Part shown: positions 2,556 to 43,890 of the stretch, piece by piece
Layout: each line of letters opens with the position of its first letter
How positions within the stretch are numbered: position 1 is the stretch's first letter
IMG/VR virus record: IMGVR_UViG_2541047750_000003
Coordinates: 1-52,473 of that record
Source: a virus
Taxonomy: Duplodnaviria; Heunggongvirae; Uroviricota; Caudoviricetes
DNA length: 52,473 bases
Strand: one strand, 5' to 3'
Made by a program: the position numbers and the translations under genes
Notes under the pieces: generated by a model
The model's input: the letters and a program-made list of their open reading frames with translations, nothing else
What the model was told of the DNA's origin: nothing
The model's database searches: none

Positions 2556-3977
2556 TTAAAAAGATGCGTTGCTCTGGCTGTTTCGTGGGGAGAATCGACT
2601 TGCCGCCGGACGTTGTTGCATTGACTGAATGCAAGCGGACGCCGCGCGGGCCTGGTCGCATGGGATGATGTTGCCGTTATCGTCAAACCGCTGGTAAACA
2701 GTCCCCGTTTTCCCGTGACGGTTTTTTGAAACGATGATCTCCATATATTCGCGGGCAACCGATTGTTCGTTGTAGTAGCCGTCGCGGTAGACCATGATGA
2801 TCCGGTCTGCGTCCTGTTCAAGATTACCGGAATCACGCAGATCAGAATTGTTCGGGCGCTTGTTCGGTCGTTCCTCAACGCGGCGAGATAATTGCGCCAG
2901 TGCCGCCACTGGCACGCGCAACTCTTTCGCCATCATTTTCAATGACCGCGACAATTGCCCTACGGCGAGATCATGACGTTCGGCCTTAGCCAGTTTCATT
3001 AACCCGATATAGTCAATCATCACCATCCCCAGGTTATGATGGTCCTGTTTCATCCGTTCGACGGTGGCGCGTATTTCCTCGACCGTTAACTGCGATGCGT
3101 CAACAATCCACACATCGAGATCGGCAAGGGCACTCATTCCCTGGGCGACGTGCGCCCAACCTTCGTCATCCAGTTTTACCGGATTACGTAGGCAATCCGT
3201 TGATAAGTTCCCAGCGCCAGCGATAGCACGTTCAGTCATCTGATCGAGCGACATTTCAAGCGTGAACAGCAAAACGCCGACCCGCTGACCTTCGCCTCCA
3301 GGGTATGGGCGTTCAGCCGCCGCGCGGGCAATTGCCAACGCCAACGCCGATTTACCAGACCCTGGGCGTCCGGCGATAAGCACCAGATCAGTAGCGTTAA
3401 TGCCGCCTAACATTTCGTCGAGTGGGTCAATCCCTGTTTTGATGTTGTCAGAGTTCACGCCACACTCCATGCGTTTACTTAACACTTCCGTGTATTCCTG
3501 GACCGCATCGCGCAACAGCACCGGGATAATTTGATCTTTTGTTACCTTTAATTTTGAATACCGGGAATCAAAATCTTTCATCGTCTCCCTGACGACTTCA
3601 AGCGTCCCTGTTTCCAGCTTGTAGCGAATGTCTTCCATTAGTTCCAGCATTTGCCGACGCTGGTGTTCTTCCTGTAGTAGTTGCGCATATCCTTTCAGGT
3701 TGGCAGCAGAAGGGCACGATCGTGCCGTTTGCATTAGCGGTACAAAGTTTTCATTGCCAATCTCATCGCCAACCAATAACGCGTCGATAAGATTTCTGTT
3801 TCTGGCTTGCGCCCGGATAACTTCAAACGCACGTTTATAAAGCGGGATCGTGAACACTTCAGGATCAAGTGTGGCGAGAACATCTTGCGCGTTAGGAGTA
3901 AGGCCACCTAACAGTAGCCCGCCGATAACTGACGCTTCACGTTCCTGCCGTAGTGAGTTTATTTGCTCAGTTACCAT
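2556..3977 (-). CDS. DnaB-like replicative DNA helicase
   Basis: 473 aa; Walker A GRPGSGKSALALAIA, DnaB-type N-terminal domain, RecA-like core; GGAGG RBS upstream of the ATG. Confidence 0.85.
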   Translation of the reverse strand: MVTEQINSLRQEREASVIGGLLLGGLTPNAQDVLATLDPEVFTIPLYKRAFEVIRAQARNRNLIDALLVGDEIGNENFVPLMQTARSCPSAANLKGYAQLLQEEHQRRQMLELMEDIRYKLETGTLEVVRETMKDFDSRYSKLKVTKDQIIPVLLRDAVQEYTEVLSKRMECGVNSDNIKTGIDPLDEMLGGINATDLVLIAGRPGSGKSALALAIARAAAERPYPGGEGQRVGVLLFTLEMSLDQMTERAIAGAGNLSTDCLRNPVKLDDEGWAHVAQGMSALADLDVWIVDASQLTVEEIRATVERMKQDHHNLGMVMIDYIGLMKLAKAERHDLAVGQLSRSLKMMAKELRVPVAALAQLSRRVEERPNKRPNNSDLRDSGNLEQDADRIIMVYRDGYYNEQSVAREYMEIIVSKNRHGKTGTVYQRFDDNGNIIPCDQARAASACIQSMQQRPAASRFSPRNSQSNASF

Positions 3978-3995
3978 TATGTTATTGCCTCCGGT

Positions 3996-5114
3996 TTACA
4001 AAATGGAATATTCAGAGTAATAAACAAAGCGCCCAATTTCCCCATGATCCGGGCTGTAAATAATCACCGCTGCCAGACGCCGCGACCGCCAGCCGCCATT
4101 AGTTGAATATGCGTCTTTGCCAGCTAATGTGCCGTGGTGCTCAACTATTCCAAGTGATGTTTCAACAACTGATTGATGGTGCAGATGTCCAGTGTGAGCG
4201 TAAACAGCCACAGACCTCCCGAAATCCTCCCGCCAGTCAGATACGCAAGCCGACAATAAATTTTCCGGCTTTTTGATAGTGTGCCCGTGGTGGTAAGCAA
4301 GGAATGTTTTGCCGTACTGTGTGTGGTGGACGATAGCAGGGGACACATCAACAGTTACGCGCGGTTCATCTTCGTAAAAAGCCGCCAGCGCCGCACGTAG
4401 CCAAATCATGCCAGACTGATCGTGATTGCCTGATAGTACCTGGATTTCAATATCCTTATGATTTAACAACATCTTTCCTACCGCCCGACGTACCGCTCGG
4501 ATCGCTACATAGACAAGTTTTGCATAGCGTGAATCGCAATCCAGTACGTGATTGCTTGATGGCGTAACTGGCAACAGCCCGTCAGTGTGAAGAACATCCC
4601 CACCGAGAAGCAAAACAGCTTTTTCAGACATCGGCGCAGCGCCCACCGCGTAGTCAAAGAATTCATTCAACACGCGTTCAGCGATCCCAGTGTCGTAGCT
4701 CTCGCCGCATTCAGCTTTATGAGCAAGCGCCCCGATATGCAGATCAAATACCGGATAAAGGGCCAGGCTTTTTTGAAAATCAATTTCAGGCACTGGCACG
4801 GCCTCCGCGCGTGGTATTTCTTCCGTGAATGCGTCGCGGGCAGCTTCCATTAGCCTTTCCATTTCATCACGGTCACGGGCAGTTTTAATCCAGCGCATGA
4901 CCGTATTACCAGCCTTATCGACAAGAACAGATTCACCAGTAACGCCAAAACCAGGCGCGCGACGCGTTGATATTAAACCGCGTTTCGCCAGTTTTGCGCC
5001 TAGCCGCTCGACGTTGCGTTTTGACATGCCATATTTTTCAGCGATCTGCTTGTACGTTAAACCGTTGTTATATTCAGCGATCAATTGCTCATCGCTGATT
5101 TTTCTTTGCGACAT
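3996..5114 (-). CDS. HTH domain fused to calcineurin-like metallophosphoesterase (372 aa)
   Basis: N-terminal HTH (LTYKQIAEKYGMSKRNVERL); ordered phosphoesterase motifs DLHIG, GGDVLH, GNHD, GHLHH; GAGGAA RBS; sits where a helicase loader or O/P-type protein would be. Confidence 0.6.
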   Translation of the reverse strand: MSQRKISDEQLIAEYNNGLTYKQIAEKYGMSKRNVERLGAKLAKRGLISTRRAPGFGVTGESVLVDKAGNTVMRWIKTARDRDEMERLMEAARDAFTEEIPRAEAVPVPEIDFQKSLALYPVFDLHIGALAHKAECGESYDTGIAERVLNEFFDYAVGAAPMSEKAVLLLGGDVLHTDGLLPVTPSSNHVLDCDSRYAKLVYVAIRAVRRAVGKMLLNHKDIEIQVLSGNHDQSGMIWLRAALAAFYEDEPRVTVDVSPAIVHHTQYGKTFLAYHHGHTIKKPENLLSACVSDWREDFGRSVAVYAHTGHLHHQSVVETSLGIVEHHGTLAGKDAYSTNGGWRSRRLAAVIIYSPDHGEIGRFVYYSEYSIL

Positions 5115-37552: not shown

Positions 37553-37568
37553 CCGGGCCTTTTTTTTA
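37541..37568. terminator. bidirectional terminator between convergent genes
   Basis: gcccgg-gattag-ccgggc flanked by A-run and T-run. Confidence 0.6.
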
Positions 37569-38063
37569 ATAACCTATATAATATTCGTGGTGTTTATCTA
37601 TTACTTTTTTATACATGTTAGCGCCTTCTTTGATGCACATGTTTTTGAAGTCAATTCTTACCCTATCTAATGCCATCCCGTCGGCAGCGGCATAAGCGTT
37701 ATTGTCGTGATCCTTTATCGCCCGTTCGGCAGCCATGATGGCAAGTCCGGCGACAAAGTTTTTAAATTCATTGTCATTTTCTTTGTTTTCAATAACAGCC
37801 ATCATGTGAGCGAAACTTTCACTGTGCGCTTTTATCATTTTAGCGTCACTCTTTTTGGTCCTGCTATCTTTATTTAAGATGAAATACTCCCAGTTAACGC
37901 CGTGCCTACCAATTGAAAAAAAGTTTACATTTGCCATTGTATATGCTTTTTCGTAGGCTGGATAAATAGCGTCGCACATCTTGCTGACTTCATTACTTGC
38001 ATTTGCATTGACCGCGAATATTGCCATGACCGCAGCTACCGCGACTTTTACTAACCGTTTCAT
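37566..38063 (-). CDS. secreted moron protein (165 aa)
   Basis: Signal peptide MKRLVKVAVAAVMAIFAVNANA; opposite strand to tail genes; GAGG RBS. Confidence 0.55.
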   Translation of the reverse strand: MKRLVKVAVAAVMAIFAVNANASNEVSKMCDAIYPAYEKAYTMANVNFFSIGRHGVNWEYFILNKDSRTKKSDAKMIKAHSESFAHMMAVIENKENDNEFKNFVAGLAIMAAERAIKDHDNNAYAAADGMALDRVRIDFKNMCIKEGANMYKKVIDKHHEYYIGY

Positions 38064-38321: not shown

Positions 38322-40535
38322 ATGACAATAAATGTAGGCACGATTGAGTATACCGTTGACGCAAAAACCGAGCGGTTACTCGTAGCTCAACGCAAGGCGG
38401 AAGACTCGTTTGATAAAATCGAGCAAAGCGCTAAACGTACCGATAAATCAGTGCAGTCACTTAACACCACGATAAGTAATTTATCCAAAGCTGTGAACAT
38501 TGGAATGATGCTCATGGCTGCAAAAAAATTCCTGGAGATCGCAGATAACGTGAATCTGCTACGCGCCAGGGTGACGCGGCTATCAAGCGGCATTGCTGAC
38601 GCAAAATCGAATTTTGACGGGATTATTCAGATATCGAATCGCACAGGGATGAGTGTTCAAAGCACCGGGAAGCTGTGGGAAAGCCTAAAGGCCAGCCTGC
38701 AGGATACCAGCGCGACCAGTCAGCAGGTATTGCAGCTTACCGACTCACTCCAAAAAATAGGGCGTATCGGTGGAAGCTCTTCGGATGAAATGTCAAACGC
38801 GTTGCGCCAGTTAGGGCAGTCACTGACTGGCGGCATTGTTCGCGCGGAAGAATACAACTCTGTACTTGAAAATATGCCAGAAGTATGGCGACGCGTCGCT
38901 AAACAAATGGGGATCTCGATGGGTGAACTTCGCGCAAGAATGCTTGATGGTAAGCTCACCGCCGAGGATGTTACTAATTCAATTCTTGCTGGCGCAGAAG
39001 ACATAGAGAAGGATTTCGCAAAGCTGCCAACAACAACAGATCAGGCATTTAACGAGCTAAAAAACAACTTCGATCTGTTAATTGACACGCTAAACCAAAC
39101 GCTTGGAGTGTCTGATTTGGTGGTTACTGGTATACAGGCTGTTTCTAGTGAAGTTCAGATGTTATCCGGTTGGTTTAAGTCCCTGGCGAGCGATAGCACG
39201 TCATTAACTGATAAATTGTGGCTATTGGCTGGGGCGTTTGAGGGTATAGTGCCTGGGCTTAGTTTGTTTCGCGCTCAAGCGAAACAGGTTGGATGGTTTG
39301 ATGGCGGAGAACAGCCATTTGTTTCCACTCTCCCCACGGGGCAAGCTGGTGTAAGTCGCATAACATTTAAGCCTCAACCTGGTGGCAAGGGTAAGAAAGG
39401 CAAAGGTAAAAAATCCGGCAAATCAGAAGCCGAGCGCCTTGCGGAACAGGGTGTGCGCATTTCAGATGCATACAACGAAGATTCAGCAGCAATGCGCAAA
39501 GCGCTTGAATCACAAAAAGCCATAGATGCAGCCTTTAAAGCCGGGAAAATAACCATGCTTGAATACAAAGGTGCAATGAAGGGAATTGGTGATGAATTGC
39601 GCGAAACTCTGGCAGAAATTAACGACCCGATCAATAGGCTGCAAGAAAAATGGGACAAAATGATTCCATCACTGGATCAGAAGCGCGGCGAGCTGGACCC
39701 AATACAGCAGGCGCAAAATGAATGGACCATACGCAAGCAAATGCTGGAAGATCTTGGCGCTACCGAGCAATACATGAAGGAGCAAGAAAGAGCGCACGCA
39801 CAAGAAATGCTCTCCCTTGAATGGGAGCGATATAAAGCACAGTCAATGAGCTACAAACTATTGGGCGATACCGTTGATGCAATGGGAGGATCTGCAACAA
39901 ATGCGCTTGTGGGCCTGGTTAACGGCACTCAAAGTTGGCAGCAGGCGCTGGCTAACATTGGCAATACAATCCTTTCCTCCGTTATCGGTACACTTGTTCA
40001 AATGGGGGCTGAATGGGTTAAACAGCAATTGATCGGTGAGGCCGCCAGCGCAGCCGCAACAGCTAAAGCATTGGCAGAGGCTACCGCTTTGGGATCTGCG
40101 TGGGCCACTCCTGCATACCTGGCAAACGTTGCCACGATGGGCGGAGCGGCGACCGTGGGGGGAACGAGTCTTGCCACTGGTGTGGCTGGGGCTAAGGCGC
40201 TTGGCCTGGCTGGCGCTCGTTATAACGGCGGTGCGGTGGCTGCGGGCAGCCTCTATAAGGTCGGCGAACACGGTAAACCGGAGATCTTTCAGGCGAGCAA
40301 TGGGAGTCAGTACATGATTCCGGGTGACAACGGCAGGGTAATACCAAATCGCGACATTGGCGGTGCTGGTGGTGGTAGCGTTAGTATAAACGCGCCGATT
40401 AGTGTTTACCCCCAAAATGGATGGAGCGATGAGGATGCCAAAAAGCTACAACAGGACATGGAAAGGATCTGCATGGGCCTGATGCACCGCGAATCATCCA
40501 GACCAGGCGGAATGTTGCAACCTCGCAGGAAATAA
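38322..40535 (+). CDS. tail tape measure protein
   Basis: 737 aa; helical/coiled-coil N-terminal two-thirds, Gly/Ala-rich region (GGAATVGG...), position upstream of M-L-K-I-J-like genes. Confidence 0.75.
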   Translation: MTINVGTIEYTVDAKTERLLVAQRKAEDSFDKIEQSAKRTDKSVQSLNTTISNLSKAVNIGMMLMAAKKFLEIADNVNLLRARVTRLSSGIADAKSNFDGIIQISNRTGMSVQSTGKLWESLKASLQDTSATSQQVLQLTDSLQKIGRIGGSSSDEMSNALRQLGQSLTGGIVRAEEYNSVLENMPEVWRRVAKQMGISMGELRARMLDGKLTAEDVTNSILAGAEDIEKDFAKLPTTTDQAFNELKNNFDLLIDTLNQTLGVSDLVVTGIQAVSSEVQMLSGWFKSLASDSTSLTDKLWLLAGAFEGIVPGLSLFRAQAKQVGWFDGGEQPFVSTLPTGQAGVSRITFKPQPGGKGKKGKGKKSGKSEAERLAEQGVRISDAYNEDSAAMRKALESQKAIDAAFKAGKITMLEYKGAMKGIGDELRETLAEINDPINRLQEKWDKMIPSLDQKRGELDPIQQAQNEWTIRKQMLEDLGATEQYMKEQERAHAQEMLSLEWERYKAQSMSYKLLGDTVDAMGGSATNALVGLVNGTQSWQQALANIGNTILSSVIGTLVQMGAEWVKQQLIGEAASAAATAKALAEATALGSAWATPAYLANVATMGGAATVGGTSLATGVAGAKALGLAGARYNGGAVAAGSLYKVGEHGKPEIFQASNGSQYMIPGDNGRVIPNRDIGGAGGGSVSINAPISVYPQNGWSDEDAKKLQQDMERICMGLMHRESSRPGGMLQPRRK

Positions 40536-40676
40536 ACAAAACCCCGGCACAATGCCGGGGCTATTTTCGTATTTATAAACGACCATTTCGCGCGATACAC
40601 ACTCATCCGAAATTACCTGCCAAATATTCCAGATCTCCCGCAAGGTGAATTTATCGTCCTCCATATCCAGCCTCAC
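40494..40676 (-). CDS. questionable small ORF (60 aa)
   Basis: Track ORF overlapping the terminator and the 3-prime end of the tape measure gene; could be the third gene of the minus-strand cassette. Confidence 0.2.
   Translation of the reverse strand: MRLDMEDDKFTLREIWNIWQVISDECVSREMVVYKYENSPGIVPGFCLFPARLQHSAWSG
40542..40574. terminator. intrinsic terminator after tape measure gene
   Basis: ccccggc-acaat-gccgggg followed by T-rich tract. Confidence 0.6.
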
Positions 40677-40927
40677 TTATGCGCACCCTTCACCCCGCAT
40701 AACTTGTTGTAAGCGTGGTGCTCAACAATTAACCACACCTTCAAATCTTCACTGAACAGCCTCCAGTCGAGATTGATATCCATTTTGTAGCCATACCCAT
40801 CGCGTAACTTTTTGGGGCGCACCTCTTTATTTAAAAATGCTTTAAGCAGTTCCTTACCTTTCTTGATAATCCGGTCCTGTGCGTTTTTCTGTACTTTCAG
40901 GTTTTTGTCAATCGCCACCAGTTTCAT
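40673..40927 (-). CDS. RelE/ParE/YoeB-fold toxin-like protein (84 aa)
   Basis: Basic small protein; C-terminal YKMDINLDWRLFSEDLKVWLIVEHHAY resembles the toxin core strands; assignment tentative. Confidence 0.35.
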   Translation of the reverse strand: MKLVAIDKNLKVQKNAQDRIIKKGKELLKAFLNKEVRPKKLRDGYGYKMDINLDWRLFSEDLKVWLIVEHHAYNKLCGVKGAHK

Positions 40928-40944
40928 ATCTCACCCCATCATCC

Positions 40945-41100
40945 TTAGTTAAGTGCCTTCAGGAAGAAATCCCGGTATTCATCTTCCTTCGCATTCATCA
41001 TGAATTGACCGTATTTGAATGCGTCATCGAAACCCTTAACGATTGCTATTTCCACTTGTTCGAATGCGTTGTTCAGCATTACAACCACATAGCGTTTCAT
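40945..41100 (-). CDS. small protein (51 aa), possible partner of the toxin-like gene
   Basis: MKRYVVVMLNNAFEQVEIAIVKGFDDAFKYGQFMMNAKEDEYRDFFLKALN; GGAGG RBS; ends 17 nt before downstream start. Confidence 0.4.
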   Translation of the reverse strand: MKRYVVVMLNNAFEQVEIAIVKGFDDAFKYGQFMMNAKEDEYRDFFLKALN

Positions 41101-41213
41101 TTTGGGCCTCCTTCGTTGGTACTGCTTTTCTTCTTGCTTTCTATATACACCTTGTTACACCATGCATGAAGCCATATTGTAAACTAGCTATAATTATTGT
41201 GACTAATATCTCG

Positions 41214-41237
41214 TTTTTCGCGTAGAAGCGCGTAAAG
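41214..41237 (+). promoter_or_regulatory. conserved element TTTTTCGCGTAGAAGCGCGTAAAG (copy 2)
   Basis: 22 of 24 nt identical to 29393-29416; 32 nt upstream of M-like gene. Confidence 0.45.
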
Positions 41238-41268
41238 ATATATACAATATGTAACTTATGGAGGGCTT

Positions 41269-41622
41269 ATGCCGGAAGTATTCAGGTGGACGCCGCAAAG
41301 AAGCTACAGCGTGACCAGGGAGCCGGACATATCCGTTGTTAAGCTGGGCGATGGTTATGAGCAAAGACAGGTAAAAGGCATCAATCCATTGCTTGATAGT
41401 TACACCCTGGTTTTTAAAGGCAGTAGTGCGGGATGCGGTGATGATGGGAATGTAGCGATCCAGGCTGAAGCATTTTTGAGGGCGCGCGGCGCTGTCGAGG
41501 CTTTCTACTGGACGCCGTCGATGGATGGAGTGCAAAGGCTTTTCGTTTGCCGTAGCTGGAGTATGACCAAAGACGGGCCTATGTACACGCTAAACGCAAC
41601 GTTTGAACAAGTTGTTGGCTAA
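41269..41622 (+). CDS. minor tail protein M-like
   Basis: 117 aa; FRWTPQ...GDGYEQRQ...FEQVVG matches recalled lambda M (FRWKVKP...GDGYSQR...FEQVVN). Confidence 0.75.
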   Translation: MPEVFRWTPQRSYSVTREPDISVVKLGDGYEQRQVKGINPLLDSYTLVFKGSSAGCGDDGNVAIQAEAFLRARGAVEAFYWTPSMDGVQRLFVCRSWSMTKDGPMYTLNATFEQVVG

Positions 41623-41633
41623 TGGAGGTTGTT

Positions 41634-41819
41634 ATGTACGGCACTTGTATAGTTGATGAGGCTGACGCTTTTACATTGTATGACGACTATGAGATCAACG
41701 ACCTTGCTGTAAAGGCTGACAACGGCGATATATGGTATCTTCACGACGTTGGTGATGGGTACGTGGGGTGTAGATCCTGGGAAGGGAAGGAGGTTTTATT
41801 TTTGGTTGATGGCGTATAA
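41634..41819 (+). CDS. hypothetical protein (61 aa)
   Basis: Start refined to ATG after GGAGGT; extra gene between M-like and L-like. Confidence 0.35.
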   Translation: MYGTCIVDEADAFTLYDDYEINDLAVKADNGDIWYLHDVGDGYVGCRSWEGKEVLFLVDGV

Positions 41820-42056: not shown

Positions 42057-42260
42057 TTAAGGTAACTCCACTTCGTTAAATGTAACAAGCACCCCTTGAT
42101 TTTCTTTATTTATAATTATGAAGGCATTAATTGAAGGCAGACATCTTTCCACGTGGTAAACGTCACCAATATCTAAACTGTAATATTCTGTTAATTCTCT
42201 ATTGTTCCCTTTAGCAAAACCCGTAAACCTAACCTTTTTTTGACCGTCGTACTTTAACAT
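42057..42260 (-). CDS. hypothetical moron protein (67 aa)
   Basis: Track ORF in minus-strand island. Confidence 0.4.
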   Translation of the reverse strand: MLKYDGQKKVRFTGFAKGNNRELTEYYSLDIGDVYHVERCLPSINAFIIINKENQGVLVTFNEVELP

Positions 42261-42268
42261 ATACAGTC

Positions 42269-42517
42269 CTATAGGTTATCACGCAGATAATTAACGCCTT
42301 TGTCAGTGACGAATGAGTGATTAACCTGGTTTTCATCCGTCATGATGATGAATAACTTTTCCTGTAGGTATTTCGCTTTAGGGTACAGCGTTAAGCAGAC
42401 CTGGTACAGTATCCCGCGCTCAATCAGCAAATCAATAAATTCGTGTTCATGATAACCGATAAGGCGGGCGGCCTGTTTCAACGTGTACACATAATCCCCG
42501 TGATTACGCCGCGCCAT
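42269..42517 (-). CDS. hypothetical moron protein, possible HTH (82 aa)
   Basis: AAGGTGGA RBS; YTLKQAARLIGYHEHEFIDLLIERGIL is HTH-like. Confidence 0.45.
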   Translation of the reverse strand: MARRNHGDYVYTLKQAARLIGYHEHEFIDLLIERGILYQVCLTLYPKAKYLQEKLFIIMTDENQVNHSFVTDKGVNYLRDNL

Positions 42518-42526
42518 ACTTCCACC

Positions 42527-42877
42527 TTATTTATCGAAAGCAGATAGATTGTCTATACAGAAATCTTTTGCCGCTTTTTCGTATTCGTGTTTTGCTTCTG
42601 GATCGTCTGCCGGGAAACCTTTTGCGTGTATTTCACCAGGGCAAGACTGATCCATAGAATCAGCAAATTCAACATTGACGTTAAAGTTAATATCTTTCGG
42701 GTTCATCTCTTCCACCTTATCCGGTACATGGACCGGAGTAATATCAAAATCACGAGCGTTAGACCAACAGCGAAGTAATTCACAACCTTCATCACGCGCC
42801 GCAGCATATGTGTCAAATAGGCCCATGCGCTCCCATTCGCATTTATCAGTCCACACTTCTAAACTGTATTTTTGCAT
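42527..42877 (-). CDS. hypothetical moron protein (116 aa)
   Basis: GGGAGG RBS; acidic, Cys-containing. Confidence 0.45.
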   Translation of the reverse strand: MQKYSLEVWTDKCEWERMGLFDTYAAARDEGCELLRCWSNARDFDITPVHVPDKVEEMNPKDINFNVNVEFADSMDQSCPGEIHAKGFPADDPEAKHEYEKAAKDFCIDNLSAFDK

Positions 42878-43056
42878 TTTTTGTTAACCTCCCATTTGTC
42901 CCATTTGACAGGTTCGATCCGGTATCCCAAAAGGCGGTCATCCTCAGCAAGTAAAAGCGCGTCAACCAATGCTTCCCCCTCGTCGTCATACAGGGCGATA
43001 ACCTTTTCCCTACCGTCTGTCATGAATACCGTCAACTTCCATAGCTTTTCAGTCAT
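42859..43056 (-). CDS. hypothetical moron protein (65 aa)
   Basis: Start refined to MTEKLWKL after GGAGGTG RBS (track ORF 42859..43176). Confidence 0.4.
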   Translation of the reverse strand: MTEKLWKLTVFMTDGREKVIALYDDEGEALVDALLLAEDDRLLGYRIEPVKWDKWEVNKKCKNTV

Positions 43057-43132
43057 AACGCACCTCCGCGCCATTTTGTTAACTATGCTTCCGTTTGAGT
43101 AAAATATACATATTGTAAAAACCGCGATCAAT

Positions 43133-43167
43133 CCATTTTGGTATGATTTAGCGTGACGCAGATCACA
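43133..43167. promoter_or_regulatory. divergent regulatory region with CCATTTTGGTA and CAGATCACA elements
   Basis: Partial copies of the motifs seen at 38274-38307 and 50317-50357, ~20 nt upstream of the L-like ATG. Confidence 0.4.
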
Positions 43168-43185
43168 GAATGACAAGGTGAGAAA

Positions 43186-43890
43186 ATGCGCAATATTCCG
43201 AGAGAAATGATTATTGATTCCGTCGATGCCGGAGTCGGCGCGGTAATTGACTTGTTTGAATTAGACCTCACGCCCCTGGGTGGCGAGGTTATCCGCTTCC
43301 ATTCCGGCGTGAATGGCTATTACGGCCCGGTTATCTGGAAGGGGGTGGCTTACAACAGCTACCCTATCGAGGCCACAGGCTTCGAAATGAAAAACGAGGG
43401 TGTCTATTCACGCCCGCAAATGGTTGTAGCAAACATTGGCGGCCTAATCACCGGGATGAATAACGATTTCAACGACCTGCGAGGAATGAAAGTTACACGC
43501 CGCCAGGTGGAAGTAAAATACCTGGACGCCATCAACTTCCCCAACGGCAACCCGGATGCAGATCCGTCTATCGAGGCGGTGTCTTTTTACGTCGTTGAGG
43601 CGATGAGCGAAGAAACAGCCGACCAGGTGCAATATGAGCTGTCAACGCCAATTGATGCTGACAAGGCGGTTATCCCAGGGCGCACAATCCTTGCTGACGT
43701 TTGCCAATGGCAATATCGCGGCGACAGTTGCGGATACAGTGGCGGCCCTGTAGCTACTGATAAAGACGAATCGACCAGCGATCCAAAGCTGGATAAATGC
43801 AGCCACCGCCTGAGCGGTTGCCGTTTACGTTTCCCGCGCCCGAATCCGTTACCAATTTCATGTTTCCCAGGATCGAGCAAGGTGGGTTGA
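43186..43890 (+). CDS. minor tail protein L-like
   Basis: 234 aa; QWQYRGDSCGYSG and DKCSHRLSGCRLRF match recalled lambda L (TWTYRGDECGYSG, DKCSKCLSGCKFRN). Confidence 0.8.
   Translation: MRNIPREMIIDSVDAGVGAVIDLFELDLTPLGGEVIRFHSGVNGYYGPVIWKGVAYNSYPIEATGFEMKNEGVYSRPQMVVANIGGLITGMNNDFNDLRGMKVTRRQVEVKYLDAINFPNGNPDADPSIEAVSFYVVEAMSEETADQVQYELSTPIDADKAVIPGRTILADVCQWQYRGDSCGYSGGPVATDKDESTSDPKLDKCSHRLSGCRLRFPRPNPLPISCFPGSSKVG

Follow-up and report, generated by a model that had tools for sequence, protein, structure and literature searches.

A minus-strand cassette in the tail operon of an mEp021-like coliphage carries a ParE_like (PF24732) gene that selection maintains with or without its small neighbor

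The window analyzed here is the whole 52,473-nucleotide (nt) stretch of IMG/VR record IMGVR_UViG_2541047750_000003, which corresponds to a nearly complete genome (52.5 kb) of an mEp021-like temperate coliphage. The subject of this study is a cassette within it, a minus-strand unit located between the plus-strand genes for the tape-measure protein (38322-40535) and for an M-like minor tail protein (41269-41622; PF05939). Reading along the minus strand, the cassette is formed by a gene of 51 amino acids (aa; 40945..41100), a gap of 17 nt (40944-40928), a gene of 84 aa (40673..40927) and a third open reading frame (ORF; 40494..40676) that runs through a terminator. The product of the 51-aa gene is mildly acidic (isoelectric point, pI, of 5.1) and that of the 84-aa gene is basic (pI 9.9, net charge of about +10). 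A Shine-Dalgarno element, AAGGAGG (41107..41113, minus strand), can be read from the sequence 6 nt before the ATG of the 51-aa gene at 41100. An initial annotation of this DNA had described a 51-aa ORF with a ribosome-binding site (RBS), the 17-nt gap and a basic 84-aa ORF, and had viewed the cassette as a module inserted in the tail operon on the minus strand; the ORFs, the RBS and the gap are all present as described, and the work that follows supports the view of the cassette as an insertion complete in itself.

The region at 40612-41300 shares 82-84% identity with the Escherichia phages mEp010, mEp044, mEp554, mEp515 and MagusPhagus, and the same region is carried as prophage by 33 of 5426 complete E. 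coli genomes. Together, the mEp021-like phages make up the "mEpimmI" group, whose members are temperate, Nus-dependent and non-lambdoid, and the cassette goes undiscussed in the paper that describes their genomes (PMC11893012). For comparison of the locus we used 45 IMG/VR contigs and 22 metagenome contigs, about 64 of them distinct.

Over about 60 related loci, the 51-aa gene has a ratio of non-synonymous to synonymous polymorphism (pN/pS) of 0.06 and the 84-aa gene one of 0.18; because both values are low, the two ORFs are real coding genes and not chance ORFs. Both are also predicted, with identical starts and boundaries, by the Prokaryotic Genome Annotation Pipeline (PGAP) of RefSeq. The 84-aa protein, a member of phrog_1525, matches the Pfam family PF24732 (ParE_like, "ParE-like toxin domain") with 47.3 bits, for a gathering cut-off of 24.4 (E = 2.1e-12), its residues 19-75 being aligned to positions 2-67 of the 67 positions of the model. 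All 24 relatives tested match the same family (best E = 6e-19), and a lenient Pfam scan of 24 members (E <= 10) revealed neither PF05016 nor any other toxin family beside PF24732. Prophage homologues at the same genomic position are named 'ParE family toxin-like protein' in RefSeq (e.g. WP_053886672.1). PF24732 is a family defined by sequence alone; a literature search found no paper mentioning it and no characterized member.

Close relatives of the 84-aa protein (68-99% identity) are confined to the mEp021-like phage group, and a HMMER search against 1.84 billion representative proteins returned nine matches; the close family is thus narrow. Distant members, found by profile search, are 26-52% identical and all belong to PF24732. 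No homologue was found among PLSDB plasmids or GTDB species-representative genomes. PADLOC-DB 2.0 gave no match at E <= 1 for any of seven cassette proteins, and a search of NCBIfam gave no match to a toxin-antitoxin (TA) model for either the 84-aa or the 51-aa protein.

The 51-aa protein belongs to phrog_29810 (E = 9e-40), and its relatives, all of which are at least 76% identical, occur only in mEp021-like E. coli phages and prophages. It has no match in Pfam, NCBIfam or PADLOC and no sequence similarity to chains in the PDB. The protein therefore appears to carry no identified DNA-binding or antitoxin signature, and a ribbon-helix-helix-like fold, if there is one, would be cryptic. The remark in the initial annotation that the putative partner has no obvious DNA-binding fold holds, as far as searches of Pfam, NCBIfam and PDB sequences go.

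Several observations separate the 84-aa gene from its neighbor. In three mutually diverged contigs (L069, L071 and L100), the 84-aa gene is intact and the 51-aa gene is absent, with a junction shared by the three; here, the 84-aa gene has its own RBS, AAGGGGGA, and lies directly behind the conserved promoter region (see below). The 84-aa gene of this lineage shows 7-24 synonymous codon changes for 2 non-synonymous ones (20-24 synonymous changes in the two larger comparisons), and since the synonymous excess extends across diverged contigs, the gene is kept by selection without the 51-aa gene. Moreover, the pairwise divergences of the 51-aa and 84-aa proteins are uncorrelated (r = 0.06), and identical 51-aa proteins are paired with 84-aa proteins that are up to 40% divergent. 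The 51-aa protein is also the more conserved of the two (pN/pS of 0.06 vs 0.18). An antitoxin that is more conserved than its toxin is the reverse of the pattern usual for TA pairs.

A first AlphaFold2 (AF2) model of the 84-aa protein, based on a shallow alignment of relatives at least 71% identical, had a predicted local distance difference test (pLDDT) score of 61 and gave meaningless Foldseek matches; it was superseded by a model from a deeper alignment that includes the distant members, with a pLDDT of 86.9 and a predicted template modeling (pTM) score of 0.75. The elements of this model are strands at residues 3-7 and 10-13, a helix at 18-32, strands at 47-50, 55-59 and 65-69, and a C-terminal helix at 70-81. 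The top Foldseek match is YoeB, with a probability of 0.97 but a template modeling (TM) score of only about 0.48 and an E value of 0.08. Both structure searches rank RNase-type toxins above ParE structures; the ParE2 structure 5czf is among the structural matches. For a family member of a jumbo phage, the GenBank annotators of Klebsiella phage Muenster recorded an HHpred match of 97.7% to YafQ (4MMG_B). When PDB sequences were searched with profiles of the 84-aa family, no relevant match emerged, and hhalign comparisons with E. coli YoeB and RelE gave short, insignificant alignments (probability of about 1%). With sequence and profile comparisons insignificant, the relationship to the toxins is one at the level of the fold. 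The PF24732 match, the pLDDT of the second model and the top rank of YoeB bear out the RelE/ParE-like fold that the initial annotation had suspected, and the model places the protein in the RelE/ParE superfamily.

Residues that do not vary across the family alignment are K40, L41, R56 and N74; G44 and H70 come close to invariance, and Y73 is retained in most cases. Conservation of R56, H70, Y73 and N74 extends to members of 26-30% identity. The catalytic residues are E46, R65, H83 and Y84 in YoeB, and K52, K54, R61, R81 and Y87 in RelE. The Arg on a central strand and the His and Tyr at the start of the C-terminal helix of the 84-aa protein resemble RNase-type active sites, provided that the positions are equivalent, as we infer. 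Taken together, an RNase-type protein is somewhat more likely than a ParE-type one.

The PF24732 family reaches well beyond the mEp021-like phages. About 70 jumbo myophages (phAPEC6, K64-1, Muenster, GAP32 and others) carry a PF24732 gene, as do Sortsnevirus podophages, for which no integrase is annotated; both the jumbo phages and Sortsnevirus are apparently virulent. The distant PF24732 genes sit in long same-strand arrays of small genes without a conserved partner. Between phages Sortsne and IME279, for example, the PF24732 proteins are 75% identical and the upstream neighbors are non-homologous. In Muenster, the PF24732 gene is inside a predicted terminal repeat of 20 kb. As a side observation, a gene for a small putative protein kinase follows the PF24732 gene at a distance of one or two genes in jumbo phages, namely in L003 (3257-3853) and in L119, which is phage Muenster (2933-3517); in Muenster, both genes lie within the predicted terminal repeat. 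The assignment of the putative kinase comes from a weak match to Pfam Pkinase in L003 and from an HHpred value of 99.9% according to the Muenster annotators.

Because the cassette genes lie antisense within a late operon, a promoter of their own is logically required. A candidate sigma-70 promoter was found at 41176..41205 (minus strand), with TAGTCA or GTCACA as the -35 element, a spacer of 16-18 nt and TACAAT as the -10 element. It matches 9 of 12 consensus positions, and the TCACA and the -10 block are kept in relatives; in a consensus scan, promoter-like sites were not more numerous in this region than in shuffled sequence. No operator-like palindrome was found in the promoter region. A direct repeat, TACGCG-N4-TACGCG (41219-41234; start-to-start spacing of 10 nt), is nearly invariant among the aligned relatives and comes shortly before the predicted -35 of the cassette, in a segment that on the other strand is the leader of the M-like gene; it could be a binding site for a regulator.

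At the other end, a strong bidirectional intrinsic terminator (40528..40567, both strands) separates the cassette from the convergent tape-measure gene. Its stem (40540-40562) has 10 bp, seven of them G-C pairs, and a 3-nt loop, and is accompanied by T-runs on both strands; it is kept in relatives regardless of the length of the cassette. As the terminator is inside the late tail operon, directly after the stop codon of the tape-measure gene, late transcription must read through it. Such readthrough is consistent with what is reported of these phages, a Nus-dependent biology of the antitermination type (PMC11893012). A search of Rfam produced only sub-threshold matches, all due to the terminator hairpin, and there is thus no sign in it of an antisense RNA or of a type I or type III TA system.

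The third ORF can be read as 60 aa from a GTG at 40676, which overlaps the TGA stop codon of the 84-aa gene, or as 56 aa from an ATG at 40664; it crosses the terminator hairpin and overlaps, in antisense, the last 42 nt of the tape-measure gene (whose stop is at 40535). It has no match to a Pfam or PHROG family. At the corresponding place, relatives hold a conserved gene of 30 aa, M[ED]DDKFTWREIWNIWQV[MI]F[AG]R[SG]Y[IV]ARNGRL, which is intact in L030, L010 and L043 and has a pN/pS of 0.07 over its first 17 codons. The window keeps the first 18 codons of this gene (40664-40611), the only part of the third ORF that is homologous coding sequence; beyond them, the loss of 1 nt from a T-run at about 40610 puts the sequence out of frame, and the ancestral frame has itself acquired a TGA by substitution. 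In the closest relatives (L018 type), a deletion has removed most of the 30-aa gene, and there are indels in L047 and L037. The frameshift, the TGA in the old frame and the decay in relatives identify the third ORF of the window as a pseudogene. The 60-aa ORF that the initial annotation had listed as possibly following the 84-aa gene and overlapping the terminator is therefore present, but as a frameshifted remnant and not as a gene that functions as it stands.

The 30-aa gene was considered as an alternative antitoxin and rejected, as many loci, this window among them, lack it or hold it in decayed form while keeping the 84-aa gene. No locus lacking both the 51-aa and the 30-aa genes was seen among the related loci, which says little since only about one would be expected. 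More generally, the gene content downstream of the 84-aa gene differs among relatives that are otherwise syntenic. The promoter-distal part of the cassette in L010, L012, L040, L046, L048 and others is a variable array of tiny genes, coding for proteins of 49 aa (MRWRELHSYG..), 30 aa, 56-58 aa (MKNPANKSNVKR..) and 59-61 aa, the last being acidic (MIIHETEECRR..), as well as for a hydrophobic, probably membrane, protein of 95 aa; no Pfam match was found for any of the tiny genes. In one relative (L026/L058, about 3460-4190), an insertion of approximately 700 bp with a hairpin terminator of its own is found between the 84-aa and the tape-measure genes.

We tentatively propose that the locus is a moron cassette built around a RelE/YafQ-like effector of phage type that stands alone and is probably an RNase, together with a small companion that is selected separately. 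The cassette would then be an independently transcribed accessory ("moron") unit with two live genes and a dead one, and its constant core would be the basic 84-aa protein, as a phage-lineage member of the RelE/YafQ/YoeB/ParE toxin fold. This protein would act alone, as a ribosome-associated mRNA endonuclease of the RelE/YafQ type and not as a gyrase poison; a lysogen might deploy it against incoming phages, or it might serve to damp host translation at an early stage of infection or induction. The 51-aa protein may modulate the 84-aa protein and would not be an obligatory antidote. The two genes are probably not a classical TA pair, because the comparison with relatives suggests that the 84-aa protein works without an obligatory antitoxin. 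Of the TA-like module that the initial annotation had suggested, the toxin fold and the adjacent small gene are retained, whereas the lineage without the 51-aa gene and the r value of 0.06 argue against the 51-aa protein as the obligatory partner.

Comparison with known systems places the cassette close to several of them without making it identical to any. The structure searches and the HHpred result of the Muenster annotators lean slightly to the RelE/YoeB/YafQ/HigB endonuclease toxins over ParE; however, the 84-aa protein has no significant sequence or profile similarity to the former, its model has one long helix in place of the helical hairpin and an extra short strand at the N-terminus, and its family is restricted to phages and has no obligatory adjacent antitoxin. 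Pfam's name for the family, ParE_like, implies a ParE-type function, whereas the structural evidence leans slightly to the RNase-type relatives. The arrangement is like that of PaaA2-ParE2, from a cryptic prophage of E. coli O157:H7, in that a prophage-borne toxin of the RelE/ParE fold follows a very small antitoxin with no DNA-binding domain. Unlike PaaR2-PaaA2-ParE2, the cassette has no third, regulator gene and its 51-aa gene is dispensable in a natural lineage; the 51-aa protein has no sequence similarity to any solved antitoxin. As in the morons of lambdoid and HK97-like phages, which are independent units of promoter, gene and terminator placed among late genes, an antisense unit with its own terminator and a variable content is found between conserved tail genes, whereas the promoter of the cassette is a prediction at the level of the consensus and its expression in the lysogen is presumptive. 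RegB of phage T4 is a phage-encoded early protein with the RelE/YoeB fold which inactivates mRNAs and has no known antitoxin (PMC3014915). We propose the same logic for the PF24732 proteins, many of which are encoded in early-type gene arrays of apparently virulent phages.

The proposal of a stand-alone effector has to be weighed against an atypical type II TA, or abortive infection-like, pair, in which the acidic 51-aa protein would neutralize the 84-aa toxin in the manner of PaaA2, without a DNA-binding domain, and in which the pair would stabilize the prophage, or abort superinfection once the labile antidote is lost. A number of observations speak for such a pair and against our proposal. 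In 61 of the approximately 64 related contigs (about 95%), the two genes occur together on the same strand, the 51-aa gene preceding the 84-aa gene by 17-24 nt; the gene order, the sizes, the 17-nt spacing and the charge pattern (pI of 5.1 and 9.9) are those of a typical type II TA pair; purifying selection acts on both genes; and the 84-aa protein has a toxin fold. To our knowledge, nearly all of the characterized proteins with a RelE/ParE fold are TA toxins, and PaaA2-ParE2 is a precedent for a small antitoxin without a DNA-binding domain. In addition, the predicted -10 is weaker in the lineage devoid of the 51-aa gene (TTCAAA vs TACAAA or TACAAT), a difference that could represent compensation for toxicity. 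Several independent frameshifts in the 84-aa gene are found next to an intact 51-aa gene, as fits a gene that is costly; 10 of the 55 protein clusters are of truncated 84-aa variants, yet these comprise only about 2% of the member sequences, and as the frameshifts are this rare they are weak evidence of a cost, so that we give the toxicity argument less weight. Set against all this are the three diverged contigs with an intact, selected 84-aa gene and no 51-aa gene, the lack of covariation and the far higher conservation of the presumed antitoxin than of the toxin. Neither an antitoxin or DNA-binding signature in the 51-aa protein nor an operator-like palindrome in the promoter region was found; PADLOC and the TA models of NCBIfam gave no match, members occur in apparently virulent phages without a conserved partner, and no homologue was found on plasmids. 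On balance, we regard a TA pair of this kind as less likely than a stand-alone effector, but as a serious competitor to it.

Two other explanations concern the activity of the 84-aa protein itself. It could poison DNA gyrase as ParE does, with or without the 51-aa protein as antidote, and both Pfam and PGAP give it a 'ParE-like' name. However, RNase-type toxins rank higher in both structure searches, the HHpred result for a family member points to YafQ, and the conserved His, Arg and Tyr are found where enzymes of the RelE/YoeB/YafQ type keep their catalytic residues, an equivalence that is presumptive. ParE toxins need a C-terminal extension for the inhibition of gyrase, and the 84-aa protein has little of one; a gyrase poison thus seems improbable to us. 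Alternatively, the protein could be a catalytically inert binder or decoy with a toxin fold, sequestering, for example, host antitoxins, ribosome factors or defence components, and harmless in the absence of an antidote. Such a role would be in line with the tolerance of the 84-aa gene without the 51-aa gene, with the cautious 'toxin-like' wording of PGAP and with the presence of members in the small-gene arrays of jumbo phages, where in our view host-takeover or anti-defence genes might be expected. Yet the polar set of Arg, His, Tyr and Asn is invariant across the range of 26-100% identity, as is commoner in active sites than in binding surfaces, and we consider an inert decoy very unlikely.

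The tail operon in which the cassette lies is interrupted more than once. Three separate antisense islands, all on the minus strand, break the plus-strand operon, at 37566-38063, 40494-41100 (the cassette) and 42057-43176. The first, which precedes the tape-measure gene, consists of a 165-aa gene without a Pfam match. The last, between the M-like and 65-aa genes on one side and the L-like protein gene (43186-43890, plus strand; a tail gene) on the other, has four genes, for proteins of 67 aa, 82 aa (KilAC/ANT-like; PF03374), 116 aa (phrog_38567) and about 62 aa (phrog_29559). The 65-aa ORF (phrog_3249; 41622-41819, plus strand) starts at the stop codon of the M-like gene, with an ATGA overlap; it is annotated as a hypothetical protein in relatives and is apparently a conserved small late gene. 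In L111 (682-1155), L112 (74-547) and mEp515 (H42), an inserted 157-aa HNH_3 homing-endonuclease gene separates the M-like gene from the promoter side of the cassette.

PF24732 is a catalogued family, and the prophage copies are already labeled "ParE family toxin-like protein" in RefSeq. What our analysis adds is evidence that PF24732 is phage-restricted and not tied to an antitoxin, that the 51-aa gene is dispensable, and that the third ORF is a pseudogene. With the 84-aa gene as yet an uncharacterized member of this family, the significance for now is modest. A wider and more doubtful extension of our proposal is that PF24732 forms a phage-restricted clade of antitoxin-free effectors of the RelE/YafQ fold, a widespread analogue of T4 RegB, and that the 51-aa protein is a new, minimal modulator. 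The effectors would then be used by virulent jumbo phages as early genes of the terminal repeats, by Sortsnevirus, and by temperate mEp021-like phages as morons, with the 51-aa modulator, devoid of a DNA-binding domain, in the temperate lineage. If the two genes were a TA pair instead, the 51-aa protein would represent a new, very small type of antitoxin. The significance would rise if a class of antitoxin-free RNase effectors were demonstrated: an active, antidote-free nuclease of the RelE/YafQ type would widen the view of the toxin-antitoxin fold to a broad class of phage effectors, and would offer a way into studying how translation is manipulated, or competitors are excluded, by temperate and jumbo phages.

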